A stretch of DNA of 64,000 nt from an uncultured Kiritimatiellota bacterium (GCA_944391055.1 CALXSF010000004.1:97374-161373), one strand, 5' to 3'. Shown: positions 18,067 through 49,425, numbered from the stretch's first letter. The notes: generated by a model not told the origin, from the letters alone. A program made the numbers and translations.

Positions 18067-18075
18067 TGCTATAAT
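18067..18075 (+). promoter_or_regulatory. extended -10 box TGcTATAAT 6 nt upstream of ATG 18082, implying a leaderless mRNA
   Basis: Direct read. Confidence 0.45.
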
Positions 18076-18081
18076 CCAAGC

Positions 18082-20223
18082 ATGAAGAAAGGCCTGATGC
18101 TTCTGTTCGCGCTGTGCGCGGCGACGGTGTTCGCCGCGGGCACGGAGTCTGCCGGGTTGAACATCACGCACCGGATGATGACCTTGGCCATCCAAGTGGG
18201 CGTGATCCTGTTCGCGGCGCGCTTCGGCAATCTGCTCTTCTCGTGGCTGAGGCTGCCCAGCGTGTTGGGCGAGCTGTGCGCGGGCATCCTGATCGGGCCT
18301 TATGCGCTGGGGACGCTTTGGCCGGGCTGGGTCTTCCAGCTTTTCCCGGGGTCGTCGGTGGGCGTCTCGCCGGAGCTTTACGGGCTTTGCACGGTGGCTT
18401 CGATCGTCCTGCTCTTCCTGGTGGGGGCGGAGACGGATCTGCGGATGTTCATGCGCTATTCGGCGGTGGGGTCGCTGGTGGGCGTGGGGGGCGTGGTCTT
18501 CTCGTATCTGGCGGGGGCGACGATCGGGGTGTGGCTGCTGGGGCTGGAATGGTCTGACCCGACGACGATCCTGCTGGGCGTGATGAGCACGGCGACCTCC
18601 GTCTCCATCACCGCGCGCATCCTCTCCGACCGCCGCAAACTGGATTCGCAGGAAGGCGTCACCATCCTGGCCGGCGCGGTGATCGACGACGTGCTGGGCA
18701 TCATCATGCTGGCCATCGGCATGGGGCTCATCGCGGCGAAGGAGAACGGGGACGCCTTTTCGTGGGGGCACATCGTGGGCATCGCCGCCAAGTGCATGGG
18801 CATTTGGCTGGGGGCGACGGCGGTGGGCATCCTGGTCTCGCGCAAGGTGGCGTGGCTGCTGCGTTTCTGCGGGTCGCACGGCGAGGTGGCGATTCTGACG
18901 CTTGGGCTGGCGCTGTTGGTGGGCGGGCTTTTCGAGCAAGCGAGTTTGGCGATGATCATCGGCGCTTACGTCACCGGGCTCTCCTTCTCGCGCACGGACA
19001 TGGGGGTGATGATCCAGGAGAAGCTCCACGGCGTCTATCAGTTCTTGGTGCCCATTTTCTTCGTGGTCATGGGCATGATGGTGAACATCGGGGAGTTCGC
19101 CAAGGAGGGCGTCCTCGTCGCCGGGCTTATTTACACGGCCGTCGCCGTCGTCGCGAAGATCGTGGGCTGCGGCCTGCCGACGCTGCTCTTCGGCTTCACG
19201 CCGGTGGGGGCGCTGCGCGTGGGGCTGGGGATGGTGCCGCGCGGCGAGGTGGCGCTGATCATCGCGGGCATCGCCGCGGCGCACGGCCACACCGAGATCC
19301 TCGGCGTCGCCGTGCTCATGACCATGCTCACCACGCTTGTCTCGCCCCCGCTCCTCTTGGCGGCCTTCGCCATCGGGCGCCCCGGCCACAGACAGAAGGC
19401 CGCGCGCGACGGTCAGCCGGTGGCCGCCTATCACTTCCCCAACCGCGCCATCACCAGCACCGTGATGGGCAAAATCCTCCAGAATCTGACCAAGGAAGGC
19501 TTCTTCACCCATCAAATCAACCCCGCGCAGGGCCTTTATCAGGCGCGGCGCGACGACATCGTGGTGAACATCACCTGCGGCGAGATGGAGATCACCTTCT
19601 CCGCCTCCCAGGAGGCCCTGCCCTTCGTGCGCATCGTGATGGCGGAGTCGCTGGCCGAGTTCGAGACGGTGCTCGACGCCCTGCGCAAGCCCATCGCCGA
19701 AAGCGCGCACTTCGCCATCGACGCCTCCACGCCGCCCCCCAAGCCCCGCGCCAAGCCCGCCGGGCGGCTGGACGTCCTGGCGCGCCACGTCCGCGAGGAG
19801 GCCATCATCCCCCGCCTGAAGGCCACCGACCGCGACGGCGCCATCCGCGAGCTGCTGGGCCGCCTCCATGACCTCGGCGCGGTGGGGGACGTCGCCGAGG
19901 CCGAGGCCGAGGTCTTCCGCCGCGAGGCCGTCATGCCCACGGGCGTCGGGTTCGGCGTGGCCTGCCCGCATGCCCGCACCAACGCCGTCCCCATGCTCAC
20001 CTGCGCCATCGGCATCGCCGGGCGCCCCATCGATTTCTCGCCGGACGAGGAGGGCCGCGCCTGCCGCATCATCATCCTCACCCTCACGCCCGACACCGTG
20101 AACAGCCCCTACATGACCTTCATCACCGCGGCGCTCACCGCCCTCCGCGCCCCCTCCAAACGCCAGGCGCTCACGGAGGCGCCGGACGCCGCCGCCATCC
20201 GTGCCATCCTGCTCACCCCATGA
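18082..20223 (+). CDS. CPA2-family monovalent cation:proton antiporter fused to a C-terminal PTS EIIA type-2 (EIIA-Ntr-like) domain
   Basis: About 400 aa of polytopic Kef/NapA-like membrane domain, then a soluble domain (...LARHVREEAIIPRLKATDRDGAIRELL...MPTGVGFGVACPHART...ILTLTPDT) typical of PTS EIIA-2/PtsN. Confidence 0.75.
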   Translation: MKKGLMLLFALCAATVFAAGTESAGLNITHRMMTLAIQVGVILFAARFGNLLFSWLRLPSVLGELCAGILIGPYALGTLWPGWVFQLFPGSSVGVSPELYGLCTVASIVLLFLVGAETDLRMFMRYSAVGSLVGVGGVVFSYLAGATIGVWLLGLEWSDPTTILLGVMSTATSVSITARILSDRRKLDSQEGVTILAGAVIDDVLGIIMLAIGMGLIAAKENGDAFSWGHIVGIAAKCMGIWLGATAVGILVSRKVAWLLRFCGSHGEVAILTLGLALLVGGLFEQASLAMIIGAYVTGLSFSRTDMGVMIQEKLHGVYQFLVPIFFVVMGMMVNIGEFAKEGVLVAGLIYTAVAVVAKIVGCGLPTLLFGFTPVGALRVGLGMVPRGEVALIIAGIAAAHGHTEILGVAVLMTMLTTLVSPPLLLAAFAIGRPGHRQKAARDGQPVAAYHFPNRAITSTVMGKILQNLTKEGFFTHQINPAQGLYQARRDDIVVNITCGEMEITFSASQEALPFVRIVMAESLAEFETVLDALRKPIAESAHFAIDASTPPPKPRAKPAGRLDVLARHVREEAIIPRLKATDRDGAIRELLGRLHDLGAVGDVAEAEAEVFRREAVMPTGVGFGVACPHARTNAVPMLTCAIGIAGRPIDFSPDEEGRACRIIILTLTPDTVNSPYMTFITAALTALRAPSKRQALTEAPDAAAIRAILLTP

Positions 20224-21182
20224 GACGCCTCCTCGCCAGCCTTCTCCTCGCCGCGGCCGCCTTGGCGCAGGGTGCCTGGGAGCCGCGCGCCCGTGAACAT
20301 TACGCGCTCATCATCGACAAGGAGCCCTTCGGCCCCATGGCCGCCGAGACCGCGGGGGGCGAGGCCGTCCCCGAGGCCACCCCCGAGCAGGTGCGCGAGG
20401 AATCCAACAAAGTCCAGCTCTGCGCCATGACCGTCACCCCGGACGGCCGCACCGCCGTCGGCATCATCGACAACGGCGCGAACCCGCCCGCCTACATCAC
20501 CCTTTTCGACGGCGAATCCAGCAACGGCCTCGAGCTGATCGTCTCCGACCTCGATCGGGAGTTCGCCACCTTCCGCCGCGACGGCATCACCTTCACCCTC
20601 GGGCTTGGCCTCGGGCTGCTGGAGACCATCACGCCGGAACTGCTGGCCCAACGCGAGGCCGAGGCGCAGGAGCTGGCCGCGGCCGACGAGGAACGCAAGC
20701 GCAAGTCGGCCAACTCCCTGGCCGAGCAGCTCATCGCCATGCAGATGAGCCTCCCGCCGGACGTCGAGGCCCCGCCCCTCCCCATCCCCCACGGCGACGC
20801 CGCCGCCTTCACCAAGGAGTTCGACCCCAACAAGGCGCGGAGCGAACCGCAGACCGAGACCGAGGCGCTCGTGCAGGCCGGCGTGGAAGAGCTCAAGGCC
20901 GCCGTCGCCGCCGGCGAAAGCCCGCAGGATTACCTCCGCCGCTTGGTGGCACATCGGCAGCAGGAGGTCCAACGGCAGCAGGCCGAGAAACAGGCCGCCC
21001 AAAACGCCCTTGACCAGGAACTCGCCGCCGGCGGGCTCTCCGAGAGCGACGCGGCGTACCTCCGCCGCCGCACCAACATCGAATTGATGAAGAAGGGCGT
21101 CGTGCCGCTGACCCCCGTGAATGACCTCTCCGACTCCGAGCGCGCCGAGATCGAGGCCGCGCTCAACGCCTCCCAGCCGTGA
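20220..21182 (+). CDS. hypothetical secreted acidic/coiled-coil protein
   Basis: Signal peptide; 4-nt overlaps with both neighbouring genes. No recognisable domain. Confidence 0.45.
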   Translation: MRRLLASLLLAAAALAQGAWEPRAREHYALIIDKEPFGPMAAETAGGEAVPEATPEQVREESNKVQLCAMTVTPDGRTAVGIIDNGANPPAYITLFDGESSNGLELIVSDLDREFATFRRDGITFTLGLGLGLLETITPELLAQREAEAQELAAADEERKRKSANSLAEQLIAMQMSLPPDVEAPPLPIPHGDAAAFTKEFDPNKARSEPQTETEALVQAGVEELKAAVAAGESPQDYLRRLVAHRQQEVQRQQAEKQAAQNALDQELAAGGLSESDAAYLRRRTNIELMKKGVVPLTPVNDLSDSERAEIEAALNASQP

Positions 21183-21853
21183 CCCCCGCCCCACCCCGCC
21201 CATCCTCCCCGCTCCGCCGCGTCCCCAAGACAGTCTGGCTTCTCTTGGGCGTGGGCGCGCTCATCCTTGTCCCCTTCCTGTTCTTCGGCGAGGCCATCGA
21301 GGCCTGGTTCGCGGGGCTGGCGAGCCCCGAGGCGGGCGTGGCGCGCGGCGTCTTCGGCGCGGTGCTTTTCGGCCTGCTGGCGTTGGACGTCCTCCTCCCC
21401 GTGCCAAGCAGTCTGGCCAGCACGCTCTGCGGCGTGGTCTTCGGCCTCTGGGGCGGGTTCTGGCTCTCCTTCGGCGCGATGACCGTCAGCTGCGTCATCG
21501 GCTACGGCCTGGGGCGCCTCTGCGCCGGTTACGCGCGGCGGCTGATCGGCGAGCGCGAGAACGCGCTCCTGCGCCTTTTCCTGCGCCGCCACGGCGCGCC
21601 CGCGCTGGTCGCCCTGCGGACGGTGCCGGTGCTGGCCGAGGCCTCCGTCCTCTTCGCCGGGTTGGGGCGGATGGGCGCCGGCCGCGCGGCCTGGCCGCTT
21701 CTGCTCGGCAACGCCGCCGTTTCCCTCATCTACGCTTGGGTCGGCGACGCCGGCCGCTCGCCCGACGCCATGCTGCCGGCCTTCCTCGGCTCCCTCGCTG
21801 TCTCCGCCCTGCTGATGGCCGGCGCGTGGCTTTGGCGCCGCCGCCTCGGCTGA
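21179..21853 (+). CDS. DedA/SNARE-associated (TVP38/TMEM64 family) membrane protein
   Basis: Multi-pass membrane protein carrying the DedA-type LLPVPSS...G motif. Confidence 0.7.
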   Translation: MTPAPPRPSSPLRRVPKTVWLLLGVGALILVPFLFFGEAIEAWFAGLASPEAGVARGVFGAVLFGLLALDVLLPVPSSLASTLCGVVFGLWGGFWLSFGAMTVSCVIGYGLGRLCAGYARRLIGERENALLRLFLRRHGAPALVALRTVPVLAEASVLFAGLGRMGAGRAAWPLLLGNAAVSLIYAWVGDAGRSPDAMLPAFLGSLAVSALLMAGAWLWRRRLG

Positions 21854-21862
21854 GCGCGTTCG

Positions 21863-21871
21863 TGTTATAAT
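21863..21871 (+). promoter_or_regulatory. extended -10 box TGtTATAAT 7 nt upstream of ATG 21879, implying a leaderless mRNA
   Basis: Direct read. Confidence 0.45.
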
Positions 21872-21878
21872 GGCCCGT

Positions 21879-23171
21879 ATGCAAGCGGTTCATTTGATCG
21901 GCATCGGCGGCGTGGGGATGAGCGCGTTGGCCCAGGCCTTCCTGGACAAAGGGTGGCGCGTGGGCGGCTCTGACCGTCTGCTTGGCGCGGGGACGGAGAC
22001 GCCGACGTTGGCGACGCTCCGCCGGCAGGGCGTCGCGCTCTTCCCGCAGGACGGCAGCGGCGTGGCGCCGGGCATGACCGTGGTCTACTCCACCGCCATC
22101 GAGGCCGACAACCCGGATCTCTCCAAAGCCAAGGCCCTGGGGCTGCGGACGCTCCACCGAAGCGCGGCCTTGGCGGCCTTGGCGCGCGGGCATACGCTCG
22201 TCGCGGTGACGGGCACCTGCGGCAAATCCTCCGTCACCGCGCTCTTGGGCCATCTGCTGGCGGAATGCGGACGCGACCCGTTCGTGGTGAACGGCGCGGA
22301 GGCCATCGGCTGGGAGGCCGGCGGCGCGCGCGTGGGGTCGGTGCGCCCCTCCGCGGACCCGAACGGCCTGATGGTGGCGGAGGCCGACGAGTCCGACCGC
22401 TCACTCATGGCCCTTGACCCCACCCACGTCATCGTCACGAACGTCTTCAGCGACCACTTCCCCAAGGCCGAGGCCGAGGCGCTCTTCCGGGCCTTCGAGG
22501 CCAAGGCCGCCGGGCACGTCGTCGACGCCAGGGACGAGCCGCCCGGCCCCCCGCCACGCGGAACGGGCTGGGAGACGGTCTTTGACTGGCGCGGGCGGAC
22601 ATGGCGGCTCCCGATGCCGGGCGCCCACAACGTGGCCAACGCCAAGGCCGCGCTGGCGATGGCCCTCGCGCTCGGCTGCGAGGAGGGCGCCCTCGGCGCG
22701 GCGCTCGCCACCTTCCGCGGCGTGCGGCGGCGCTTGGAGCGCGTGGGGACGTTGGGCGGCGCGTGCGTGGTGGACGATTACGCGCACAACGTGGAAAAGC
22801 TCGCCGCCGCCTGGGGCACCCTCGCCGCCGCCTTCCCCGCGGGGGTCTTCGGCCTCTGGCGGCCGCACGGCTACGCGCCGCTCCGGAAACTGCTGGACGG
22901 GCTGGCCGCGATGTTCAACGCCGTCGTGCGCCCCTGCGACCGCCTTTTGGTGCCGCCCGTCTACGACGCGGGCGGGACGACCGACCGCTCCGTGAACAGC
23001 GACGCCCTCCTGGCGCGTCTGCGCTGCCCGGCCGAGGGCGTGGCCGACCTCGCGGCGGCGGAGGCGCGGCTCCGCGCGCTGGCGCGCCCCGGCACGGCGC
23101 TTGTCACCTTTGGCGCGCGCGACCCGGGCCTCCCCGCGCTGGCGCGGCGTTTGGCGGGGCTGGCCCAATAA
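21879..23171 (+). CDS. Mur ligase, UDP-N-acetylmuramate--L-alanine ligase family (MurC/Mpl-like)
   Basis: VHLIGIGGVGMSALAQAFLDKGWRVGGSD N-terminus, then GTCGKSS (P-loop) in the central domain. Confidence 0.8.
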   Translation: MQAVHLIGIGGVGMSALAQAFLDKGWRVGGSDRLLGAGTETPTLATLRRQGVALFPQDGSGVAPGMTVVYSTAIEADNPDLSKAKALGLRTLHRSAALAALARGHTLVAVTGTCGKSSVTALLGHLLAECGRDPFVVNGAEAIGWEAGGARVGSVRPSADPNGLMVAEADESDRSLMALDPTHVIVTNVFSDHFPKAEAEALFRAFEAKAAGHVVDARDEPPGPPPRGTGWETVFDWRGRTWRLPMPGAHNVANAKAALAMALALGCEEGALGAALATFRGVRRRLERVGTLGGACVVDDYAHNVEKLAAAWGTLAAAFPAGVFGLWRPHGYAPLRKLLDGLAAMFNAVVRPCDRLLVPPVYDAGGTTDRSVNSDALLARLRCPAEGVADLAAAEARLRALARPGTALVTFGARDPGLPALARRLAGLAQ

Positions 23172-24261: not shown

Positions 24262-25407
24262 ATGGAAAAACCCCATCTTTGCGTGGCCGCGGCCATGATC
24301 TTGGATGACGCCGGAGCCGTGCTCTGCGTCAGGCGCGGCGCCTCGCGTTATGCCTCCACCGCCGACAAATGGGAGTTCCCCGGCGGCAAGATCGAGCCCG
24401 GCGAGACCCCCGCCCAAGCCGCCGTGCGCGAGGTGCGCGAGGAATTGGGCCTGGACGTCGCGCCGCTTGCCGAGGCCGCCGTCGTGCGCCACGCGTATCC
24501 CGAGTTCACCATCGCCCTCCATGGCGTCCTCTGCGCCCCCGTGGGCGGCGGGCGGCCGACGCCGGCCCTCCGCGAGCATACCGCCTTTGATTGGTGCCCC
24601 CCGGACGGCCTGTGGCGCCACGACTTCGCGGAGGCGGACACCGCCTTGCTCGTCTCGCTCCGCGAACGTTTCTTCGGCAGTCGGCTGCGCACCAAGACCT
24701 TTGGCCGGAACTGCCGTTTCGTGCAGGAGAGCGCCAGCACCAACACCGACGCCCTCGCGCTCGCCGCGCAGGGCGCCCCGGAAGGCACCCTCGTCGTCGC
24801 CGAGCGCCAAACCGCCGGGCGGGGGCGCCTTGGCCGCGTCTGGGAGGCCGCGCCGGGGCAATGCCTCACCTTTTCCCTCCTGGCCCGCCCCAAAGCCCCG
24901 CCCGAGGTCGCCGCCACGCTTCCGCTCGTGGCGGGGGTCGCCGTGGCCGCGGCGCTCCGGGCCCGCGGGTTCGCGGCGGGCGTCAAGTGGCCGAACGACG
25001 TCCTCCTCGACGATCGCAAAGTCTGCGGCATCCTCTGCGAGGCCCAGACCTCCGCGCGGGGCATCGAAGGCATCGTCGTCGGCATCGGCGTGAACACCGG
25101 TGCCGTCCCCGCGGCGTTGGCCCATCGCGCCATCGGCCTCGGCGGCGTGGATCGGCTTGCGCTCCTGGCGGATCTCTGCGCGGCCTTCGAGACGTTCTAC
25201 GCCCGGTGGTCCGAGGGCGGCCTGCCCGCGCTCCGCGCCGAGCTCGACGCCCTCGACTGCAAACGCGGCCGCGCCATCCGCGTGCGCCCCGCCGGCGGCA
25301 CGATTGACGGCATCGCCCGCGGCATCCGCGACGACGGCGCGCTGCTTTTGGAACAGAACGGCCGCACCGAGGCCATCCTTTGCGGGGAGATCGCACAATG
25401 GGACTGA
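24262..25407 (+). CDS. birA: fusion protein: NUDIX hydrolase (MutT-like) N-terminal domain plus a biotin--[acetyl-CoA-carboxylase] ligase (BirA) catalytic domain
   Basis: NUDIX box GGKIEPGETPAQAAVREVREELG, then BirA motifs QTAGRGRLGRVWEA and KWPNDVLLDDRKVCGIL. No N-terminal HTH. Confidence 0.8.
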   Translation: MEKPHLCVAAAMILDDAGAVLCVRRGASRYASTADKWEFPGGKIEPGETPAQAAVREVREELGLDVAPLAEAAVVRHAYPEFTIALHGVLCAPVGGGRPTPALREHTAFDWCPPDGLWRHDFAEADTALLVSLRERFFGSRLRTKTFGRNCRFVQESASTNTDALALAAQGAPEGTLVVAERQTAGRGRLGRVWEAAPGQCLTFSLLARPKAPPEVAATLPLVAGVAVAAALRARGFAAGVKWPNDVLLDDRKVCGILCEAQTSARGIEGIVVGIGVNTGAVPAALAHRAIGLGGVDRLALLADLCAAFETFYARWSEGGLPALRAELDALDCKRGRAIRVRPAGGTIDGIARGIRDDGALLLEQNGRTEAILCGEIAQWD

Positions 25408-26120
25408 ATCCGCTGCTTCTTGCGGCCCTCGCCGCCGCCCCCCTGGCCGCCAAGGACATCTACGTCTGCGGCCCCACCAACGCCATCCCGCCCCTCACGC
25501 AGGACGTCCGCGCCCTCCACCTCCGCGACGTCGGCGCCGCCCGCGTCTATGCCCTCCACTTCCCGGCCGGGCTTCGCGAGCTCAACCTTTCGTCAAACGC
25601 CCTCCTTGCCCTCCCGGACGGCCTCGTCCCCCAGGGCGTCGCCCGCCTTTGGCTCGCCGACAACCGCCTCACCGCCCTCCCCAAAACCGCCTCCGGCTGG
25701 ACGAACCTAGAGTATCTCAACCTCGACCGGAACCTCCTCGCCGCCCTCCCCGACCTCTCGCGCACCCGCCTCCGCTGGCTCCGCCTCAACGGCAACCGCC
25801 TCACCGCCCTCCCCACCCTCCCCGACACCGTCGAGCGCCTCTACCTCGCCGACAACCGCCTCGCCGCCGTCCCACGGAAACCCGCGGCCCTCCGGCACCT
25901 CACGCTTGCCGGGAACCCCATCACCGCCGTCCCCGACGACCTCGGCGCCGGGCTCGAATGGCTTGACCTCTCCCGCACCCGCCTCACCGCCCTCCCCCGC
26001 GACCTCTCCGCTTGGCGGACCCTCAAGCTCCTCAACCTCGCCGGCTGCCCCCTCCCGGACGCCGAGAAAGACCGCATCGAAGCCGCCTTCGACCCCGACA
26101 AAACCACCATCCTGTTCTAA
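25398..26120 (+). CDS. secreted leucine-rich-repeat protein
   Basis: Signal peptide followed by about 8 tandem LxxLxLxxNxLxxLP repeats. Confidence 0.7.
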   Translation: MGLNPLLLAALAAAPLAAKDIYVCGPTNAIPPLTQDVRALHLRDVGAARVYALHFPAGLRELNLSSNALLALPDGLVPQGVARLWLADNRLTALPKTASGWTNLEYLNLDRNLLAALPDLSRTRLRWLRLNGNRLTALPTLPDTVERLYLADNRLAAVPRKPAALRHLTLAGNPITAVPDDLGAGLEWLDLSRTRLTALPRDLSAWRTLKLLNLAGCPLPDAEKDRIEAAFDPDKTTILF

Positions 26121-26131
26121 GCCTCCCCGCC

Positions 26132-28662
26132 ATGCAAGGCTCCGCCAACCCGCTCATCCAGCTTCTCTATCACTCGGGGCGCCAGTACATCGTTCCGGTC
26201 TATCAGCGCCCCTACAGCTGGTCTGTCAAGCAATGCGCCCAGTTGTTTGACGACCTCGAGGGAATGCTCCGAAACGACCGCTCGTCCCATTTCTTTGGGA
26301 GCGTGGTGTTGAAATACAATCAATGCGGCGACTTCACCGAATGTGTCGTCATCGATGGCCAGCAGCGCCTCACCACGGTCTCCTTGCTTCTCCTGACCCT
26401 CCGCGACCTTCTGCGGCAGGGTGTTTTGTCGTCTCCGCCCGACAAACCACAATTGGCAGATGAGATCACGGAATACACGCTCATCAACAAGTTCCAACCC
26501 CTTGAGAAGACCCCGCGTTTGCGACTTGGCGCCGACGATCAACCCGCGTGGCTGAATCTTCTGGGAATCGGCGGGACGGCCTTGCCAACCTCCCACCTTC
26601 TGGAGAACCGCGACTTTTTCGCCGAGCGGCTGTGCCGTTCCGACTTCTCCCCCGCCCAACTTTACGCGGCCATCGGGAAATTGGAGGTCCTGAGCGTCTC
26701 CCTTGAGAACAAGGACGACCCGCAACTCATCTTCGAGAGCCTCAATGCCACCGGCCTCGCGCTCACCGAAGGCGACAAGGTGCGCAATTACCTGCTCATG
26801 AATCTCTCCCCCGGCGACCAAGAGCGTCTCCACGCCAAATATTGGCGAGCCATCGAACGCCACGCCCAAGAGGCCGTCAGCGAGTTGATCCGTGACTTCC
26901 TGAGCGTCAAATGCCAGCAAACGCCCCGTTTGGATGCCGTCTACGCGACCTTCAAGCAGTATGCCGCCCAATGCGGGCTCTGCCGCGAGGCGCTTCTCAG
27001 GGAACTGGGACGCTACGCAAAATGGTTCGCCCAATTGCGCGATTGCAAGGCGGATGGGTGGGGCCTCGCCTTGCAGGCCCTGCTCAATCGCCTCAACCGG
27101 TTGGATGTCGCCACCCTCCGCCCCTTCGCGTTGGAGGTCCTGCGCCAACATGAGGAGGGGACGCTGTCCCAAGATGACCTCATCGCCATCTTCGCCACCA
27201 TCGAAAGCTACCTCTTCCGCCGCGCCATCTGCGAGGTGCCCACCAACGCACTCAGCAAAATCTTCCTCACCCTCAACGCCGACATCGCCCGTCTGCGTCA
27301 CGGCAACGTGCGTTACGGCGACGTCCTCGCCTACGTCTTGCTCGCCAAAAGCGGCAGCGGCCGCTTCCCCGACGACGCGAGTTCCGCGCGGATCTCGCCA
27401 CCCGCCAGGTCTACAAGATGCGGCCGGCCTACGCCCACCACCTCTTTGAGCGGCTTGAGAACGCCGACTCCAAGGAGACCAAGGACGTCTGCGCTCATCT
27501 CGACAACAAGGACTACTCCATCGAGCACATCATGCCCCAGCACCTCACCCAGGCCTGGCGCGAGGCGCTCGGCCCCAACAGCGAGGAAATCCACGCCACT
27601 TGGCTCCACCGCCTCGCGAACCTTACTCTGACCGCCTACAACCCCAATCTTGGCGACGCGCCCTTCACGAAGAAACGCGACGCCATCCCCGGCGGCTTCA
27701 GCGACAGCGGGCTGCGCCTCAACCAAGCCATCGCCAAGCTTGAACGTTGGGGCGAACCCGAGCTCAAAGCGCGCGAAGAGGCGCTCTGCGCACAGGCGCT
27801 TCGTCTCTGGCCTTTTCCCAAAACCGACTTCCGTCCCCCGGAACGGCAGTGGGCCGCCTGCACCTTGGCCGACACGGGGATCCCTCTCTCCAACCGCAAA
27901 CCTGCGCGCTACGCCTATCACAGCGACCCCATCCCAGTGAAGGACTGGTCCGCCCTCCTCACAGGCGTGCTGCGAGCCCTATTGGATGCCCACCACGAGA
28001 AATTGCACGCCCTTGCCCACCACCAAAACGCTGGGGGCTTCGCATGGTTGGCGCGCGATCCCGACGGCTTTCGCATGCCAGAGAAATTGGACGAGGGACT
28101 CTTCGTCGAAAAGCATGGCAGCACAGAACAGCGCCTCCGCAACCTCCGCGCACTCTTCGCCTACCTTGGCGAAGAACCCGGCGACCTCGTCATCTACCTG
28201 CAAAACGGCGACGCCGCCAAACACAAACCGAACACGCTCAGCGCCGTTTGCCGCGACTACTGGGCGTTTGCCCTCCCCACCCTGCAAGAACAATGCCCTT
28301 GGCTCAAAAACCGCACACCGCCCCTCAACGACCATTTCATAACGCGACTTCCTGGCGCCCGCGGTTACGAACCCCATTATGTCGTGACCAATTCCGCCGC
28401 CCGCGTCGCCCTCTGTATCTGGCTGAAAACCACGGAAGAGAACAAGGCCGCCTTCGACCGCCTCTTTGCCCAGCGACAGGCGATTGAGGCGGACTTCGGC
28501 GCACAGCTTCATTGGGTGCGCAACGACACGGGACGCAGCAGTTGGGTGGAATACGCCCTCCCCAATGTCAGTGTCCGCAACCATGCCGATTGGCCGCGCA
28601 TCCTCGACTTCCACAAAACCCACGGCCTGCGCCTTTGGGACGCCGTGCGCCACCATCGCTGA
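26132..28662 (+). pseudogene. GmrSD-family type IV restriction endonuclease (DUF262 ParB-like NTPase domain plus DUF1524 His-Me finger nuclease domain) interrupted by a -1 frameshift near 27378
   Basis: Frame A carries YIVPVYQRPYSW...IDGQQRLTT (DUF262) and runs through ...GRFPDD. Homology then continues in the +1-shifted frame as EFRADLATRQVYKMRPAYAHHLFERL...EHIMPQ...HRLANLTL (DUF1524). The two frames overlap by a single base at 27379. Confidence 0.8.
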
Positions 28663-29141: not shown

Positions 29142-29347
29142 GCGCGCTCCTTCCCGAATCCGCCGACCCTCGCGGCCCACTTGCCTGGCCTAGAGCAAAG
29201 GCCCCTTTTTTCTAGGCCACGAAACAAGGCGAAAACGACGCATAAGTATAGCAAACACGGTTCGTGGAATGGCCTAGAAAAAGGCCGCTTTGTCAGGGAT
29301 GGTTGCGTTTGGGGGAGGGATGTGTTATTGTTAGGGCACCTTTTCAA

Positions 29348-29702
29348 GGGGGTGACCAGGTTTCGACAGGGTATGTCCGGGCCTCGGTTGCGTGCCGGGG
29401 ATGATCGTTGGCCCCGTAAAACATCGATCAAAACCTAACTGCGAACGATAACTTCGCTTACGCGGCCTAACTTTAACGGCCCGTCGCCGAAACGCCGATG
29501 TCTGCTGAGCGTGGAAGCGTCGACTAGCAGGCCCTGTCGCGAACCGAACCCTCGGGGACGCGCGCTTGTACCAACATGAGGGTGTGCGTCCGTCCAAGCC
29601 CGTCGGTCGGCCTGTCGGACGCGAGACAATAGGCCGGATACGCACGTAGACATCGTGGTGAGGCTATCTTGGACGGGGGTTCGACTCCCCCCACCTCCAC
29701 CA
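29348..29702 (+). ncRNA. ssrA: tmRNA (SsrA)
   Basis: 5' GGGGGUGACCAGGUUUCGACAGGG. Tag ORF gcg aac gat aac ttc gct tac gcg gcc taa, giving ANDNFAYAA, at 29451-29480. 3' GGACGGGGGUUCGACUCCCCCCACCUCCACCA, which is a T-arm, an acceptor stem complementary to the 5' end, and CCA. Confidence 0.9.
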
Positions 29703-29704: not shown

Positions 29705-29740
29705 TGGGCCATAAGCCGATGAGGCTTATGGCTTTTTGTT
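29705..29740 (+). terminator. rho-independent terminator after ssrA
   Basis: GCCATAAGCCgatgaGGCTTATGGC followed by TTTTTGTTTT. Confidence 0.7.
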
Positions 29741-29836: not shown

Positions 29837-29845
29837 TGTTATAGT
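29837..29845 (+). promoter_or_regulatory. extended -10 box TGtTATAGT 9 nt upstream of ATG 29855
   Basis: Direct read. Confidence 0.4.
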
Positions 29846-29854: not shown

Positions 29855-30358
29855 ATGGACAGCGATTGCGAACGGACGAACCGCGCGTTGGCGGGCAGGC
29901 TCATCGAGGCGTGCCGGCTGGCGGGGGTGCGTTTGGCGACGGCGGAGTCGTGCACGGGCGGCCTGATCGGGGCGGCGCTGACGGCGACGCCGGGGGCGAG
30001 CACGGTCTATGAGGGGGGCGTGGTGTGCTATCAGAACCGGGTGAAAGCGGCGTTGCTGGGCGTCTCGCAGGGGACGTTGGCGCGCGTGGGGGCGGTGAGC
30101 GCGGAGTGCGCGCGGGAGATGGCGCTGGGGGCGCGGCGGGCGCTGGGGGCGGATCTGGCGGTGGCGGTGACGGGCATCGCGGGGCCGGGGGGGGCGACGC
30201 CGGGCAAGCCGGTGGGGTTGGTCTACGTGGCGGCGGCGTGGGGGGACGGCCGGGTGACGGCGACGGAGAACCATTTCGCGGGGGACCGGGACGCGGTGCG
30301 CGCCCAGACGGTCCGCCGGGCATTGGATTTGGCACTGGAGTGCCTTGAGAGAAAGTGA
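29855..30358 (+). CDS. CinA-type C-terminal domain protein (nicotinamide-nucleotide amidohydrolase PncC-like)
   Basis: LATAESCTGGLIGAALTATPGAS...VAVTGIAGP are typical CinA_C motifs. Confidence 0.8.
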   Translation: MDSDCERTNRALAGRLIEACRLAGVRLATAESCTGGLIGAALTATPGASTVYEGGVVCYQNRVKAALLGVSQGTLARVGAVSAECAREMALGARRALGADLAVAVTGIAGPGGATPGKPVGLVYVAAAWGDGRVTATENHFAGDRDAVRAQTVRRALDLALECLERK

Positions 30359-39144: not shown

Positions 39145-39630
39145 TCACCCCCGGCGCGCCACGTCGGCGAAGGCCGCGGGCACGAGCGCCACCAACGCGC
39201 GCGGCGCCACCTCCACGTTCAGCCCGATCAGCCCCGCGCTCACGAAGATGCGCGGCAACGCCTCCGCCGAGGCGTCGACGAACGTGGGCAGGCGGCGCTT
39301 CATCCCCAGCGGCGAGCACCCCCCGTGGCGATAACCCGTCAGCGGGAAGAGCTTGGCCTGCGGCAGCATCGTCAGCGCCCGCACCCCGGCCGCCCGCGCC
39401 GCCTTCTTCAGATCCAGCGTCCCGTCGGCCGGCACGGCGAAGACGAAGGCCTCGTGGCGCTCCGTCTCCGTGACGAGCGTCTTGAAGACGTGCGCCGCCG
39501 GCACGCCCAGCTGCGCGGCGATCTCCGCCGCCTCCGCCCGCCCCTCGCGCCCGTCGAAGGCGTGCGCGGCGTAAGGCACGCCCGCCGCCTCCAAGAGGCG
39601 CTCCACGTTGGTCTTCCTGCCGGTTTTCAT
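39145..39630 (-). CDS. ybaK: YbaK/ProX-type aminoacyl-tRNA deacylase (Cys-tRNA(Pro) deacylase-like)
   Basis: TGYRHGGCSPLGMK motif; about 160 aa. Confidence 0.75.
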   Translation of the reverse strand: MKTGRKTNVERLLEAAGVPYAAHAFDGREGRAEAAEIAAQLGVPAAHVFKTLVTETERHEAFVFAVPADGTLDLKKAARAAGVRALTMLPQAKLFPLTGYRHGGCSPLGMKRRLPTFVDASAEALPRIFVSAGLIGLNVEVAPRALVALVPAAFADVARRG

Positions 39631-39672
39631 GCCCCCATTCTACCAAACCGCCCCCGCGCCGCGGGGCGGGTG

Positions 39673-39681
39673 TGCTATAAT
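39673..39681 (+). promoter_or_regulatory. extended -10 box TGcTATAAT with ATG codons at 39680 and 39689, the latter a leaderless start
   Basis: Direct read. Confidence 0.45.
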
Positions 39682-39688: not shown

Positions 39689-40318
39689 ATGGAGCGGATC
39701 GGACAGCCGGTGGGCGGGGACAGCCTCGCCATCATCGCCAACGGCGCGCCGCCTGAGCGCGCCGGCGAGCGGGCGGCCTTGGCGGCGTGCGCGGCGTGCG
39801 TGTGCTGCGACCGTCTGCCGCCGCCGGGGGCGCCGCCGCTGTTGCAGGTGGTGGGGGACTGCGACACGCTCCGCCCGCCGCTCCCCCCCGCCCATCTGCT
39901 CACGCGCGACGCGGATCAGGAGACCAACGACCTCACCAAGGCGATGCGGTGGTGCCGCGCCCACGCGCCGGGGAGGCCTTTGGCCTTCTTCGCGGTGGCG
40001 GGTGGGCGGCTGGACCACACGTTGGCGAACCTCGCCCTCATCGCGGAGGGGCCGGCCCCGGCGCGGGTCTACGCCAACGACGGAGCCTTCGCGCTGCTCC
40101 CGGCGGGGAGGCACGCGCTGGGGGTGGAGGCGGGGGTGCCGCTGTCGCTGCTTTCGTTCGCGCCCCAGCGCGTCACCGCGCGGGGGGTGGCGTGGCCGGT
40201 GGAGGATCTGCCGCTGCGGGCGCTGTGGCGGGCCACGCTGAACCGCGCCACGGGGCCTGTGCTGGAGGTTGACTGCCAGGCGCCGCTTTTCGTCTACCAA
40301 CCTTGGAGCGTCCCATGA
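39689..40318 (+). CDS. thiamine pyrophosphokinase
   Basis: ...ETNDLTKAMRW...VAGGRLDHTLANLAL... are TPK catalytic motifs. An alternative ATG lies at 39680. Confidence 0.7.
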   Translation: MERIGQPVGGDSLAIIANGAPPERAGERAALAACAACVCCDRLPPPGAPPLLQVVGDCDTLRPPLPPAHLLTRDADQETNDLTKAMRWCRAHAPGRPLAFFAVAGGRLDHTLANLALIAEGPAPARVYANDGAFALLPAGRHALGVEAGVPLSLLSFAPQRVTARGVAWPVEDLPLRALWRATLNRATGPVLEVDCQAPLFVYQPWSVP

Positions 40319-41630: not shown

Positions 41631-42873
41631 TCACTTGCCGGCGATCTGGCCGGAGAGGGCGAGCATCCGGGCCTCGACGGACTGGATCTCGGCGAAGCCT
41701 TGGGAGGAGACGGGGTTGACGCCGTCGGAGGCCTCCATGGAGGAATCCGCCTCGTTGTAGATGGAGTGCGGGCAGTCCGTGAGGGAATCGAAGAGGATGT
41801 TGCCCTTGTAGAGGCTGAGGGCGACGGTGCCGTCGGCGTACTGCGCAAGCGTGTCGACGGCGTTGCGGGCGGCGACGGTGGTGGGGTCGTAGTAGCGGCC
41901 GTCGTAGATCTGGTCGGAGATGAGCTTGGAGAGCTGCGTGAAGAAGAGGGTGGCGCGGCGGTCCATCGTGGCCTGGTAGACGTAGCGGATGGCGGAGCCG
42001 AGGAGCTCCATGCCGGGGGCCTCGTAGACGCCGCGGCTCTTGGTGCCGATGATGCGGTTCTCAAGGGCGTGCTTCATGCCGATGCCGTTGCGGCCGCCGA
42101 TCTCGTTGGCGAGCATCATGGCCTCGAGGGGGGTGACGTCCTTGCCGTTGATCTGGACGGGGCGGCCCTTGGCGAAGCGGATGGCGACGCGCTCGGGCTT
42201 GTCGGGGGCCTGCCAGGGCCAGACGCCCATGGTGGGCTCGACGATGGTCATGGAGGTCTCCATGCTCTCGAGGTCCTCGGCCTCGTGGGAGAGGCCGGCC
42301 ATGTTGGCGTCGGTGGAGTATTTCTTCTTGCCGCCGGCGAAGGCGACGATGCCGAACTGCGCGAGGTAGTCGACCATCTGCGTGCGGCCGGGGAACCGCT
42401 TCAGCAGCCCGGCGTCGCGCCAGGGGGAGTAGACCTTCATCTCGGGGGCGAAGACGTTGGTGTAGCGCTCGATGCGCATCTGGTCGTTGCCGCGGCCGGT
42501 GGCGCCGTGGACGAGGACTTGGACGCCGCGCTTCTTCATCTCGGGGATGAGGCCCTTGATGGTGACGGCGCGGCCGATGCCGGTGGAGTTCCAGTAGCCG
42601 CCGTCGTACATCGCCTGGCACTTGACGGCCTCGAGGCAGGCCTCGGCCATCTCGTCGCGCAGGTCGACGATGACGGTCTCGATGCCGGTGGGCGCCATGC
42701 GCTTGGCCACGTCGTTGATGTCCTTCTCGTCGGGCTGGCCGATGCCGCCGGTGAAGCCGATGACCTTCACGCCGTGCTCCATCATCACCTTCGCGATGGT
42801 GCGCGAATCGAGGCCGCCGGAAACGCAGGTGCCCGCGACCATACCTTTGAGATCGTCCAAAACCAATGCCATG
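41631..42873 (-). CDS. argG: argininosuccinate synthase
   Basis: MALVLDD...VSGGLDS (PP-loop) and the ArgG core; 414 aa. Confidence 0.9.
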
Positions 42874-42908: not shown

Positions 42909-42917
42909 AGTGTAGCA
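42909..42917 (-). promoter_or_regulatory. extended -10-like box TGcTACACT on the minus strand upstream of argG, divergent from the gyrA promoter
   Basis: Direct read; leader of about 35 nt. Confidence 0.35.
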
Positions 42918-42965: not shown

Positions 42966-42974
42966 TGGTATACT
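42966..42974 (+). promoter_or_regulatory. extended -10 box TGgTATACT upstream of gyrA, with a leader of about 22 nt and an AAAGGA RBS
   Basis: Direct read. Confidence 0.45.
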
Positions 42975-42996
42975 GACGGGTCGAAAGGATTGACCA

Positions 42997-45546
<2,550 letters not shown>

Positions 45547-45621: not shown

Positions 45622-45630
45622 TGGTATAAT
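45622..45630 (+). promoter_or_regulatory. extended -10 box TGgTATAAT 6 nt upstream of ATG 45637, implying a leaderless mRNA
   Basis: Direct read. Confidence 0.45.
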
Positions 45631-45636
45631 GGCGCC

Positions 45637-46977
45637 ATGGACGATTTGTTCGACAGGGAGGACGAAGGCGAGGATCAGGCGCCCGCCGACCCCGCGAAGC
45701 TGGGGCCGCTGCCGGCGCGCATGCGCCCGCGGAGCCTGGAGGAGATCGTGGGGCAGGAACACCTGCTGGCGCCGGGGCGCCTCCTGCGCCGCGTGATCGA
45801 GAGCGACCGCTTCACCAACCTGATCTTCTATGGGCCGCCGGGGACGGGGAAGACGACGCTGGCGGAGGTCATCGCCCGCACGACCCACCGCCGCTTCGAG
45901 CGCACCAGCGGGGTCACGAGCAACGTGGCGCAGCTGCGCGCCGTCTGCGAGAAGGCGCGCGCCCTGCGCGGGCGGATCGGGACGGTGCTCTTCGTGGACG
46001 AGATTCACCGCTTCAACAAAGCCCAGCAGGACGTCCTCCTCCCCTACGTGGAGGACGGCACGGTGACGCTCATCGGGGCGACGACGCACAACCCCGGCAT
46101 CTTCATCAACACCCCGCTCGTCTCGCGCTCGCTCGTCTTCGAGCTGCGCGCCCTGGACGCGGCGGCGATCGGGGCGGTGCTGCGCCGGGCCTTGGCCGAC
46201 CGCGAGCGCGGCCTGGGCGACAGCGGGGCGACGCTCGACCCGGAGGCGGAGGCCTTCCTGGCCAAGGTCTGCGACGGCGACGCGCGGCGCGCCCTGACGG
46301 CGCTGGAGATCGCGGCGCGCTCGACCCCGCCGGACGCCGAGGGCCGCATCCGCATCACCGCGGAGGTCATGGCCGAATGCGTCCAGCGCCGCGTCATCGC
46401 CTACGACAAGGACGAGGATCAGCACTACGACACCATCTCCGCCTTCATCAAATCCATCCGCGGCTCCGACCCCGACGCGGCGGTCTACTGGCTGGCCAAG
46501 ATGCTCGAGGGTGGCGAGGACCCCCGCTTCATCGCGCGGCGGCTGGTCATCTCCGCCTCGGAGGACATCGGCAACGCCGACCCGCGCGGGCTGACGGTGG
46601 CCGTGGCCGCCATGCAGGCGGTGGAGTTCGTGGGGATGCCCGAGGCGCGGATCGCCCTGGCCCAGGCCACCACCTACCTGGCCTCGGCGCCGAAATCCAA
46701 CGCCGCCTACCTGGCGCTGGACGAGGCGGCGGCGGACGTCCGCTCCGGCCGCGTGCAGCCGGTGCCCGAGCACCTCAAGAACGTCCACGTGAAGGCCGAG
46801 GGCAAGGCGGCCGCCCCCGCCTACAAATATCCCCACGACTACCGCGACACGGCGGTCGACCAAGCCTACCTGACCATCCCGGCCACCTATTACCGGCCCA
46901 AACCCGCGGGCTACGAGGACACCATCGCCAAACGCCTGGCCTGGCTCCGCGCCCGCAAAGCCCAAGCGAGGGAATGA
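45637..46977 (+). CDS. rarA: replication-associated recombination protein A (AAA+ ATPase)
   Basis: GPPGTGKTTLA Walker A, VLFVDEIHRFNK, and the MgsA C-terminal domain. Confidence 0.9.
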   Translation: MDDLFDREDEGEDQAPADPAKLGPLPARMRPRSLEEIVGQEHLLAPGRLLRRVIESDRFTNLIFYGPPGTGKTTLAEVIARTTHRRFERTSGVTSNVAQLRAVCEKARALRGRIGTVLFVDEIHRFNKAQQDVLLPYVEDGTVTLIGATTHNPGIFINTPLVSRSLVFELRALDAAAIGAVLRRALADRERGLGDSGATLDPEAEAFLAKVCDGDARRALTALEIAARSTPPDAEGRIRITAEVMAECVQRRVIAYDKDEDQHYDTISAFIKSIRGSDPDAAVYWLAKMLEGGEDPRFIARRLVISASEDIGNADPRGLTVAVAAMQAVEFVGMPEARIALAQATTYLASAPKSNAAYLALDEAAADVRSGRVQPVPEHLKNVHVKAEGKAAAPAYKYPHDYRDTAVDQAYLTIPATYYRPKPAGYEDTIAKRLAWLRARKAQARE

Positions 46978-46980
46978 CGC

Positions 46981-48516
46981 ATGAAATGGATCGACGTGCC
47001 CGGCATCCGCGAGGCCGAGCGCCTGGCCTTCGCCCAACGCAACCTGCCCAGCTACACGGCCATGTGCCGCGCCGGCGCCGCCGTCGCCCGAATGGCCGAG
47101 GCCGTGGCCGAGCGCGCCGGGCTCCGCCGCGCCATCGTCCTCTGCGGCCCCGGCAACAACGGCGGCGACGGCTGCGTGGCCGCCCGCTGCCTGCATGAGG
47201 ACGGCTTCGACGTGGAGGTGCGCCTCACCTGCGTGCCCTCCCACCTCAGGGGCGACGCCCTGCGCGCCTGGAAGGATCTGGTGGCCGCCGGGCTCCAGAC
47301 CCGTGTCCTCCCCTCCCCCGAGGCCTGGCAGGACACACCTTGGGCCGACCCCGCCGTCGCCCCCCGCCGCGCCCTCATCGTGGACGCGCTCCTGGGCATC
47401 GGCGCCAAGGGGGCGCCCACCGGCGCCGTGGCCGCGGCCATCCTCTGGGCCAACGGCACCGCCCCCTCCTGCCCCGTCCTCTCCGTGGACGTCCCCAGCG
47501 GCCTGGACGCCGACACCGGCGCGACGCCCGGCGCCGCCATCCGCGCCGACGCCACCATCACCTTCTCGCGGCCCAAGCTCGGCTTCGCCAACCCCGCCGC
47601 CCGCCCCTGCCTGGGCCATCTGACCGTGGCGGACATCGGCATCCCCAACGACCTGCTCGAGACCGCCGCCCGCCTCCCGCCCGACGGGGCCGAGCTCATC
47701 GCCGCGCCCGAGATCCGCCACGTCCTCCGCCCCGAGCGCGCGCAGGATTCCCACAAGCGCACCTACGGCCACGCCCTCATCATCGGCGGCTGCCCGCGCT
47801 ACCCGCACGCCCCCGTGCTCGCCGCCCAGGCGGCCTACCGCGCCGGGTGCGGCCTCGTCTCCCTCGCCGTGCCCGAATGCGCCCGCCCCGCCGCCGCCCA
47901 CTGGGCGCCCGAGGCCATCTTCGCCGACGAGACGCCGGGCGACCTCTCGGACTTCGACGCCCTGGCCATCGGCCCCGGCATGGGCCCCCTCACGGGCGGG
48001 CGCCTGGCGCTCCTCCGCCGCCTGGTGAGCGACGCGCAGGCCCCCCGCGCCGTGGTCGACGCCGACGCCCTCACCGCCTTGGCCGCGCTCCGCCAAGAGG
48101 AAGGCTGGGCCCCCGACGGCTCGGCGCTCCGCCTCATCCTCACGCCCCATCCCGGCGAGGCCGCCCGCCTCCTCGGCGTCACCCCCAAGGACGTGCAGGG
48201 CGACCGCCCCGCCGCCGCCCGCGCCCTCGCGGCCAACTACCACGCCATCGCCGTGCTCAAGGGCCACAACACCCTCGTGGCCGAGCCCGGCGGCCGCCTG
48301 CGCGTCTGCATGGGCGGCAATCCCGGCATGGCCACCGCCGGCACCGGCGACCTGCTCACCGGCATCATCGCGGGGCTCCTCGCGCGCGGCCTCGGCACGG
48401 AGGACGCCGCCGTCCTCGGCGTCTACCACCACGCCCTCGCCGGCGACGCCGCCGCCTTCGCCCACGGCGAGGAATCGCTCGTGGCCACCGACCTCTTCGC
48501 CACCCTCCGTCTCTGA
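46981..48516 (+). CDS. nnr: bifunctional NAD(P)H-hydrate repair enzyme (epimerase plus ADP-dependent dehydratase)
   Basis: YjeF-N domain (VLCGPGNNGGDG) followed by a carbohydrate-kinase-like C-terminal domain (GMATAGTGDLL). Confidence 0.85.
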   Translation: MKWIDVPGIREAERLAFAQRNLPSYTAMCRAGAAVARMAEAVAERAGLRRAIVLCGPGNNGGDGCVAARCLHEDGFDVEVRLTCVPSHLRGDALRAWKDLVAAGLQTRVLPSPEAWQDTPWADPAVAPRRALIVDALLGIGAKGAPTGAVAAAILWANGTAPSCPVLSVDVPSGLDADTGATPGAAIRADATITFSRPKLGFANPAARPCLGHLTVADIGIPNDLLETAARLPPDGAELIAAPEIRHVLRPERAQDSHKRTYGHALIIGGCPRYPHAPVLAAQAAYRAGCGLVSLAVPECARPAAAHWAPEAIFADETPGDLSDFDALAIGPGMGPLTGGRLALLRRLVSDAQAPRAVVDADALTALAALRQEEGWAPDGSALRLILTPHPGEAARLLGVTPKDVQGDRPAAARALAANYHAIAVLKGHNTLVAEPGGRLRVCMGGNPGMATAGTGDLLTGIIAGLLARGLGTEDAAVLGVYHHALAGDAAAFAHGEESLVATDLFATLRL

Positions 48517-48534
48517 CGGGGGCGAGGCGCTTTT

Positions 48535-48543
48535 TGCTACAAT
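48535..48543 (+). promoter_or_regulatory. extended -10 box TGcTACAAT 9 nt upstream of ATG 48553
   Basis: Direct read. Confidence 0.4.
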
Positions 48544-48552
48544 GTGTGATTG

Positions 48553-49425
48553 ATGAAAGCCACGGATCTCACTGTCGTATCCCTGCCGCTGCCCTCGTCC
48601 GAGGCGGCGGACACGCTGTTGGAGCTGGTGGACGCGGAGGCCTTCACGCCGACGGTGTGGGAGGACGTGGAGACCGGCGAGACGCGCTTCGAGGTCTTCC
48701 TGGAGGACGCCGCGCGCGCGCCGGCGGTGGCCGAGGCCCTGCGCGGCGCGGCTGCCCTCGCGGGGCTCGGCGCGGCGTCGCCCGAGATCGGGACGTTGCC
48801 GGCGGCGGACTGGGCGGAGGCCTGGAAGCGCTTCTTCCATGTGGAGCGCGTGTCGCCGCGCGTGACGATCCGCCCCTCGTGGGAGCCTTACGAGGCGGCG
48901 CCCGGGGAGGCGGTGGTGACGCTGGATCCCGGGATGAGCTTCGGCACGGGGCGCCACCCGACCACGCGGGCCTGCCTGATTTTCTTGGACGAGCTGGCGC
49001 AGGGCGACCTCTCGCGGCCGGTGCTGGACATGGGCTGCGGAAGCGGCATCCTCTCCATCGCGGCGCGGAAGCTGGGCTTCGCCCATGTGCGCGGCTTCGA
49101 CTACGACCCCGACGCGGTGGCGGTGGCGCGGGAGAACGCGGCCCTGAACGGCGTGCGCATCCCCTTCGAGCCGCGCGACCTGGCGGCGAACCTCGACCAA
49201 GGCGCGGTGGTGCTGGCCAACATCCTGGGCCCGGTGCTCGCCGCGCACGCGGCGGAGGTGGCCTGCGCGGTGCTGCCGGGCGGCGCGTTGGTGGCCTCGG
49301 GCATCTTGGAGTCTTTCTACCCGGAGGTGCGCGCCGCCTTCGAGGCGCAGGGGCTGCGCGAGGCCCGCGCCCTGACGCTCGGCGAATGGCGCACCGGCCT
49401 TTTCACGAAACCCGAACAGCCCTGA
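48553..49425 (+). CDS. prmA: ribosomal protein L11 methyltransferase
   Basis: LDMGCGSGILSIAARKLG SAM motif and the PrmA N-terminal domain. Confidence 0.85.
   Translation: MKATDLTVVSLPLPSSEAADTLLELVDAEAFTPTVWEDVETGETRFEVFLEDAARAPAVAEALRGAAALAGLGAASPEIGTLPAADWAEAWKRFFHVERVSPRVTIRPSWEPYEAAPGEAVVTLDPGMSFGTGRHPTTRACLIFLDELAQGDLSRPVLDMGCGSGILSIAARKLGFAHVRGFDYDPDAVAVARENAALNGVRIPFEPRDLAANLDQGAVVLANILGPVLAAHAAEVACAVLPGGALVASGILESFYPEVRAAFEAQGLREARALTLGEWRTGLFTKPEQP

Follow-up and report, generated by a model that had tools for sequence, protein, structure and literature searches.

In Actinobacteria and Deinococcus-Thermus, a -10 box located 6–8 nucleotides (nt) from the start codon marks leaderless genes (PMC6028130, PMC3160421, PMC4007540). 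This pattern was demonstrated experimentally in Mycobacterium (PMC3898074), in Deinococcus deserti (PMC4007540) and in D. radiodurans, for which the start-adjacent box was shown to act as a -10 element (PMC12340547). Computational studies have described it as well, under the names of 'TA-led' genes (PMC3160421) and 'group C' of GeneMarkS-2 (PMC6028130). No member of the Planctomycetes-Verrucomicrobia-Chlamydiae (PVC) group is found among the phyla with leaderless genes listed by Zheng 2011 (PMC3160421). The stretch considered here, hereafter the window, comprises 64,000 nt from an uncultured Kiritimatiellota bacterium (GCA_944391055.1, CALXSF010000004.1:97374-161373). Nine of its genes directly follow boxes of the type TGnTAtAaT, which probably start transcription at the ATG or next to it, so that the resulting mRNAs would be leaderless. 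The mechanism is already known; the novelty lies in the lineage and in the flavour of the motif.

The G+C content (GC) of the window is about 70%, except in the last 8 kb (54–59%), and the motif statistics were confined to the high-GC part (positions 1-56000). The minimal extended -10 pattern used for the search was TGNTANNNT and the exact consensus pattern was TGNTATAAT, spacings being measured from the end of the hexamer to the ATG. The gene table contains the 47 complete genes of 1-56.4 kb, whose starts were curated by hand and with public gene calls. The nine genes that have a box 6–9 nt before their ATG are the following:

ATG 10933 (-): fumarase N-domain gene (10073-10933), box TGTTATACT at 10942..10950 (-), spacing 8 nt.
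ATG 13619 (-): amidohydrolase gene (12018-13619; Pfam Amidohydro_3), box TGCTATAAT at 13627..13635 (-), spacing 7 nt.
ATG 18082: Na+/H+ exchanger-EIIA2 antiporter gene (18082-20223), box TGCTATAAT at 18067..18075 (+), spacing 6 nt.
ATG 21879: Mur ligase gene (21879-23171), box TGTTATAAT at 21863..21871 (+), spacing 7 nt.
ATG 29855: CinA-domain gene (29855-30358), box TGTTATAGT at 29837..29845 (+), spacing 9 nt.
ATG 39630 (-): YbaK-like tRNA_edit gene (39145-39630), box TGGTAGAAT at 39637..39645 (-), spacing 6 nt.
ATG 39689: thiamine pyrophosphokinase (TPK) gene (39689-40318), box TGCTATAAT at 39673..39681 (+), spacing 7 nt.
ATG 45637: rarA/mgsA (45637-46977), box TGGTATAAT at 45622..45630 (+), spacing 6 nt.
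ATG 48553: prmA (48553-49425), box TGCTACAAT at 48535..48543 (+), spacing 9 nt (6 nt to a TTG at 48550).

An earlier sequence-only reading of the window had announced such boxes in at least eight genes but listed seven. All seven are present at the coordinates above, with spacings of 6–9 nt, and two that it had missed, those of the amidohydrolase (13619-) and YbaK-like (39630-) genes, bring the number in the window to nine; the span that it gave for the phenomenon (18067-48555) left out its own fumarase site at 10933 (-). The gene names that it proposed agree with the Pfam identities (Fumerase, Na_H_Exchanger+EIIA2, Mur ligase, CinA, TPK, MgsA/RarA, PrmA, GyrA and, for ilvH, the AHAS small subunit).

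Nine of the 15 matches to TGNTANNNT in the high-GC part have, 6–9 nt downstream, an ATG that opens an open reading frame (ORF) of at least 160 codons with a GC at third codon positions above 0.8. As the chance of finding such an ATG is about 0.011 per site, the binomial P is about 8e-15. On the histogram of motif-ATG distances from 0 to 12 nt, counts are found at 6, 7, 8 and 9 nt alone (0 at 0–5 and at 10–12). The exact consensus TGNTATAAT has five copies in the window, all of them 6–7 nt before an ATG, versus 0.04 expected from shuffled sequences. On the other hand, the bare count of TGNTANNNT is only about twice the second-order Markov expectation (15 versus 8.0 +/- 2.8), and the argument therefore rests on position and consensus quality. 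This low ratio is the point in favour of an explanation by chance, or by a side effect of the base composition around gene boundaries. Such an explanation has a negligible probability: it is refuted by the positional association, by the excess of exact consensus copies and by the conservation in orthologues relative to internal control positions that is described below.

Every one of the 15 motifs of the high-GC part can be assigned to the start of a gene or an RNA. Among the six that are not adjacent to an ATG, five lie 19–100 nt before gene starts, from which they are separated by a Shine-Dalgarno (SD) sequence in the cases checked, and one precedes the transfer-messenger RNA (tmRNA) gene. 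An out-of-sample sequence of 7.7 kb beyond the left end of the window, on the ENA metagenome scaffold of which one part is identical to the window (ONAT22-1_SAMEA6814658_METAG-scaffold_10, 410 kb), contains four further motifs, all four upstream of gene starts. One of them is of the leaderless type (Peptidase_U32 gene, 7 nt; L099 6810) and the three others are separated from the gene by leaders of 24–41 nt with SD-like sequences. In this organism, TGnTAnnnT is thus almost sufficient as a promoter predictor (19 of 19 sampled instances stand before a gene or RNA start), which helps to predict operons and regulons from metagenome-assembled genomes (MAGs).

Leaderless-type genes account for 9 of the 47 genes of the table (19%), and all nine use ATG, as does the tenth one found upstream. 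About 18 genes lie behind a gap or a divergent neighbour and can be considered as putative transcription units, which implies that about half of the units are of the leaderless type. Terminators do not delimit these units, since a scan gave counts equal to the shuffle expectation, except for the tmRNA terminator.

The two kinds of genes also differ in their SD sequences. An SD-like motif (GGAG/AGGA/GAGG-type, 3–12 nt upstream of the start) was found before none of the nine box-adjacent starts versus 24 of the 38 other genes (Fisher p = 6e-4), as the sequence-only reading had anticipated. Most of the remaining 14 non-SD genes overlap or abut the preceding gene. Conversely, TANNNT at 5–10 nt, with or without TG, is absent before every other curated start. 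AAGGAG-type ribosome-binding sites, which had been reported for three genes located within operons, are indeed present before ilvH and dtd, whereas ftsA has GAGGAG. The proposed dual regime, in which first genes are leaderless and internal genes are SD-led, is upheld and corresponds to group C as previously described (PMC6028130, PMC3160421).

The promoter tally includes 19 sites, 15 from the window and four from the out-of-sample sequence, and their alignment gives T(G/T)TGnTA(t)A(a/c)T. All were collected with TGNTANNNT, which fixes TG, T1, A2 and T6; the invariance of these positions is thus imposed by the pattern and is not an independent result. At unconstrained positions, A is found at hexamer position 4 in 17 of the 19 sites and position -17 is a T in 14 of them. 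Most hexamers agree with TATAAT at 5–6 of 6 positions. No TTGACA-like match was found 17 bp upstream in the leaderless set, where the region is GC-rich, and a standard two-hexamer sigma-70 scan recovers none of the sites, indicating that these are -35-less extended -10 promoters. Extended -10 (TGn, 'TRTG') promoters of Escherichia coli and Gram-positive bacteria work without a -35 element; those described here share with them the TG one base upstream of the hexamer, the frequent T at -17 and the lack of a -35 consensus.

The -10 hexamer of sigma-70 promoters normally ends 6–7 nt before +1, so that transcription from these boxes should begin at the ATG or beside it. The leaderless-type sites have a pyrimidine at -1 and an A, that of the ATG, at +1 in 9 cases out of 10 (p = 0.011). 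From this feature and from the 6–9 nt spacing, the transcription start is predicted to coincide with the start codon. GG or GGG follows the hexamer immediately in 6 of the 10 leaderless-type sites versus 1 of the 9 leadered promoters (Fisher p = 0.057), which is reminiscent of Thermus, where complexes at -35-less promoters are stabilised by a G-rich ('GGGA') discriminator.

The surroundings of several boxes are very compact. Three of the sites (13619, 21879 and 48553) lie in gaps of 22–36 nt behind co-directional genes, so that the upstream halves of these promoters must be located within the preceding coding sequence; in particular, the amidohydrolase box sits within a 22-nt gap behind a Band_7 gene and the Mur ligase box within a 25-nt gap behind a VTT-domain gene. 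The YbaK-like and TPK boxes share an intergenic region of 58 nt, where they stand back to back. As their TG motifs are only 27 nt apart, the two RNA polymerase footprints must overlap.

The same box is found farther from the start codon, or before a non-coding RNA, at the following places; the last line concerns a related box lacking TG:

ATG 42997: gyrA, box TGGTATACT at 42966..42974 (+), 22 nt before the ATG, with a GAAAGGA SD in the short leader.
ATG 42872: argG (41631-42872; Pfam Arginosuc_synth), box TGCTACACT at 42909..42917 (-), 36 nt, with a GGAG SD in the leader.
ATG 14487: Band_7 gene, box TGGTAGACT at 14507..14515 (-), 19 nt, with a short leader containing GAAAGGAG.
ATG 2270: carB, box TGTTAGAGT at 2208..2216 (+), 53 nt.
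29348-29702: tmRNA gene, box TGTTATTGT at 29323..29331 (+), 16 nt before the 5' end.
29141-28962: 59-codon ORF, box TGCTATACT at 29245..29253 (-), about 100 nt upstream, with an GGGAAGGAG SD.
ATG 17859: fucosidase gene, SD-led, TATAAT without TG at 17939..17944 (-), about 80 nt upstream.

For gyrA, the same element with a conventional leader had already been recognised in the sequence-only reading. The tmRNA gene, whose tag is ANDNFAYAA, is followed by a clear terminator hairpin (29706-29734), and the box before it shows that the motif also serves the promoter of a non-coding RNA. The fucosidase gene forms a leadered unit that is divergent from the antiporter gene. The gyrA (42966-42997) and Band_7 (14507-14487) promoters define a short-leader class, TGnTAnnnT-N7-8-GAAAGGA(G)-N5-7-ATG, that recurs in relatives (L095 9292 and 4365; L097 5548). 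Its spacing implies a predicted 5' untranslated region of about 12–16 nt, in which the SD would directly follow the transcription start; for gyrA and Band_7, which have the shortest leaders of their kind, the predicted length is about 15 nt. The 59-codon ORF (MRIGILTFHSQLNYGG...) has a strong SD and resembles the N-terminal stub of a larger enzyme. Its box TGCTATACT is flanked by repeated GGCCTAGA / TCTAGGCC elements (29189-29196, 29211-29219 and 29272-29279), which could be operators or hairpins.

These leadered sites bear on the proposal that the AT-rich boxes are translation signals, i.e. non-SD ribosome-binding sites that are unstructured or bind S1, like those of Bacteroidota, carried by longer transcripts that start at upstream promoters. 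Other phyla are known to initiate translation without an SD (GeneMarkS-2 group B, PMC6028130), and read-through is possible at the sites 13619, 21879 and 48553, which are only 22–36 nt behind a co-directional gene. However, the motif occurs before the tmRNA gene as well as upstream of the SDs of gyrA, Band_7, argG and carB, where it is not a ribosome-binding site; because it stands before a non-coding RNA and before canonical SDs, it is a promoter element rather than a translation signal. Sigma contacts the invariant positions (TG at -15/-14, T1, A2, T6), though these were fixed by the search, and the spacers are GC-rich (e.g. ggcgcc, ggcggcc). Furthermore, the equivalent motif of Deinococcus could not be replaced by a ribosome-binding site and bound RpoD (PMC12340547). 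Translation signals of this kind are thus an improbable explanation of the boxes.

The interpretation of the boxes as leaderless promoters also depends on the adjacent ATGs being the real starts, which is supported by Pfam boundaries, upstream stops, conserved N-termini and the conserved position of the ATG. Pfam domains begin at residue 4 of the Mur ligase, at residue 7 of the fumarase (Fumerase, residues 7-276, profile positions 4-268) and at residue 11 of the CinA protein (residues 11-164, profile positions 3-155). Neither rarA nor the amidohydrolase gene has an in-frame start upstream, and the next ones downstream are 63–84 nt away (63 nt for the amidohydrolase). An in-frame stop is located 6–12 nt upstream of the YbaK-like and prmA starts (6 nt before the ATG of prmA). 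An independent gene call agrees with the YbaK-like gene (161 aa), and the N-terminus of the antiporter (MKKGLMLLFALCA) is signal-peptide-like. The antiporter is itself a domain fusion (18082-20223) that associates a Na+/H+ exchanger with a C-terminal phosphotransferase system EIIA-2 domain.

If the boxes were promoters but the true starts were located further downstream, the leaders would be ordinary and the adjacent ATGs incidental. Several genes do have an in-frame TTG or GTG 15–30 nt downstream, and the GTG located 24 nt downstream in the YbaK-like gene, the one alternative start checked for an SD, has AGGAAG at 6 nt. Against this, no SD occurs within 12 nt upstream of the nine ATGs, the Pfam domains of the Mur ligase, fumarase and CinA proteins start at residues 4–11, the use of the next start in the amidohydrolase gene and rarA would cost a conserved N-terminus (MDDLF across orthologues), and the ATG is held at exactly 6–7 nt from the box in orthologues despite differing spacers. 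Downstream starts have accordingly only a slim chance of accounting for the arrangement, and the box-adjacent ATGs are retained as starts.

Conservation was analysed in orthologues of murC (the Mur ligase gene) and rarA. Among species-representative genomes, the nearest are MAGs of Kiritimatiellae that came from the cecum of roe deer and the rectum of sheep (82% RarA identity), and lower identities are found in other Kiritimatiellia, Verrucomicrobiota, Lentisphaerae and Omnitrophota; the bacterium of the window is therefore itself one of the uncultured Kiritimatiellia. Four murC orthologues (L095-L098; 83, 82, 78 and 71% identity) come from contigs with a GC of 0.54–0.71 and lie behind different genes. 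In each of them, TG(n)TATAAT or TTATAAT stands 6–7 nt before the ATG, with divergent spacers. For rarA, 78 loci from Kiritimatiellia, Verrucomicrobiae, Opitutia and others were compared, out of 80 fetched around species-representative orthologues. In 28 of the 78, TANNNT precedes an in-frame start located at the aligned N-terminus by 5–9 nt, versus 1–3 of 78 at internal control positions. With TG, the figures are 15 loci versus 0 at control positions, the typical arrangement being TGCTAATTT-N6-ATG. Gene order around rarA is not shared even at 82% protein identity, and the comparison of these loci was confined to rarA; this lack of synteny makes each orthologue an independent test. Besides murC, the high-GC relative L095 has two leaderless-type sites (one 10 nt before a tRNA-synt_2 gene, the other 6 nt before an ORF truncated at the end of the contig) and the high-GC relative L096 has three, at 7–9 nt. 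An Akkermansia rarA locus (L058) shows a weak candidate only. A metagenome scan with gyrA gave eight loci, two of them moderately related, without rarA synteny, and three strain variants (L082, L083 and L085; 99% identical) have too few single-nucleotide polymorphisms to be informative.

Spacing, absence of SD, statistics and orthologue conservation thus all point to the leaderless interpretation put forward in the sequence-only reading, and both the position of the transcription start and leaderless translation can be inferred from them for the nine genes of the window and for the tenth one upstream. The genes concerned are conserved and several are normally essential (e.g. the Mur ligase), so they must be expressed. 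Their expression would proceed as follows. The TGnTAtAaT sequences would be -35-independent TG-extended -10 boxes read by the housekeeping sigma-70-type RNA polymerase, which would start at the A of the ATG or 1–3 nt before it. The mRNA would then have no room for an SD, and a ribosome carrying the initiator tRNA would bind the 5'-terminal AUG directly, by analogy with the known leaderless pathway. Genes internal to operons would rely on GGAG/AAGGAG ribosome-binding sites or on stop-start overlaps. In a second set of units, the same box would be followed by a leader of 19–100 nt. Among the promoters of the organism, the TGn box class seems to predominate and to be coupled to leaderless starts.

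Several observations speak against this interpretation or restrict it. Read-through transcripts carrying an internal SD-less ATG probably coexist with leaderless ones at the three short-gap sites. The sites with a spacing of 8–9 nt (fumarase, CinA and prmA) may carry leaders of 1–3 nt or use another start codon. The start of prmA is ambiguous between the TTG (6 nt) and the ATG (9 nt), and the YbaK-like gene has its alternative GTG at 39606, 24 nt downstream, with AGGAAG 6 nt before it. Among the relatives, the lower-GC L097 and L098 show few or no further sites besides murC. Finally, the proportion of one half of the units is a local estimate from about 64 kb sampled of the genome.

Deinococcus-Thermus (de Groot 2014, PMC4007540; Zhong 2025, PMC12340547) resembles this organism in several respects: the -10 element lies 6–7 bp upstream, SDs are lacking and a -35 is not required, leaderless units make up about half of the total, SD-led genes coexist with them and gene callers misplace starts around the motif. 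The motif of Deinococcus-Thermus is, however, a degenerate TANNNT (mostly TACACT) without TG, whereas here TG is found everywhere and the hexamer mostly matches TATAAT at 5–6 of 6 positions. In addition, Deinococcus-Thermus are extremophiles for which there is experimental proof, whereas the Kiritimatiellia studied here belong to the PVC group, come from animal-gut-type metagenomes and are known from sequence alone. The two-signal pattern of the window, with a Pribnow box 6–8 nt from the first gene of the operon and SDs for internal or leadered genes, is that of group C and TA-led genes (Lomsadze 2018, PMC6028130; Zheng 2011, PMC3160421), but group C was reported mainly for Actinobacteria and Deinococcus-Thermus (PMC6028130). 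Zheng 2011 reported TAnnnT alone for genomes of high GC and a TG peak for the low-GC Firmicutes (PMC3160421), a trend contradicted by this 70% GC genome with a TG-extended box at every site.

Within Verrucomicrobiota, mouse-gut Cappable-seq of Akkermansia muciniphila placed about 10% of transcription start sites at gene starts (Ettwiller 2016, PMC4782308). Akkermansia likewise belongs to the PVC group, but to a different class; the share is lower and the transcription start sites were mapped experimentally. Extended -10 boxes beside starts are not described in the text consulted (PMC4782308). One survey gives SD:anti-SD pairing for about 63% of Kiritimatiellae genes and does not discuss leaderless genes in that group (PMC10783764), and no report of start-adjacent leaderless promoters was found for Kiritimatiellia in the literature searched. 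Taxonomically, the present data bring an uncultured PVC lineage from the gut into the range of promoter-adjacent leaderless genes. There is about an even chance that Kiritimatiellia and, less so, much of Verrucomicrobiota constitute a further major lineage with pervasive leaderless expression, driven by the -35-less near-consensus TRTGnTATAAT even at 70% GC, in which promoters located in 22–36 nt gaps cut operon-like strings into leaderless units and the rarA arrangement derives from the common ancestor of the phylum.

The main practical gain concerns the annotation of gene starts. Public calls begin the Mur ligase (433 aa), TPK (212 aa) and Peptidase_U32 (784 aa) proteins at an ATG that is made by the box itself together with the next G (TATAATG / TAGAATG; 21870 and 39680 in the window, L099 6817), 9 nt upstream of the likely start. 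If the box is a promoter, these public starts inside it cannot be right. Together with a murC orthologue (P0017) whose public call lacks 13 codons, these cases have the appearance of a systematic error of start annotation in the clade, and a leaderless ('group C') start model is advisable for gene finders applied to Kiritimatiellia/Verrucomicrobiota MAGs.

Other features of the window are unrelated to the boxes. The gene at 24262-25407 is a fusion of a NUDIX domain with a biotin-protein ligase (BPL_LplA_LipB + BPL_C). A GmrSD-type restriction endonuclease (26012-28662) is apparently split in two overlapping ORFs in different frames, GmrSD_N (26012-27631) and GmrSD_C+DUF4268 (27418-28662), neither of which starts with an SD or a promoter box; the split across frames suggests either that the gene is a frameshifted pseudogene or that the assembly is wrong here. 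The low-GC segment (54–59%) at 56464-64000 is occupied by an Rhs/YD-repeat array on the minus strand. It includes a large rhs gene reaching from 61368 past the edge of the window (2074 aa in L100), an orphan rhs of 876 aa (57582-60212) and a remnant of 193 aa (56464-57045). Small unannotated ORFs between the rhs genes (60241-60783, 60793-61404 and 57053-57754) could be immunity genes. A 300-nt core-end repeat is present in three copies, from 56537, 58576 and 62257, that are 90–96% identical.

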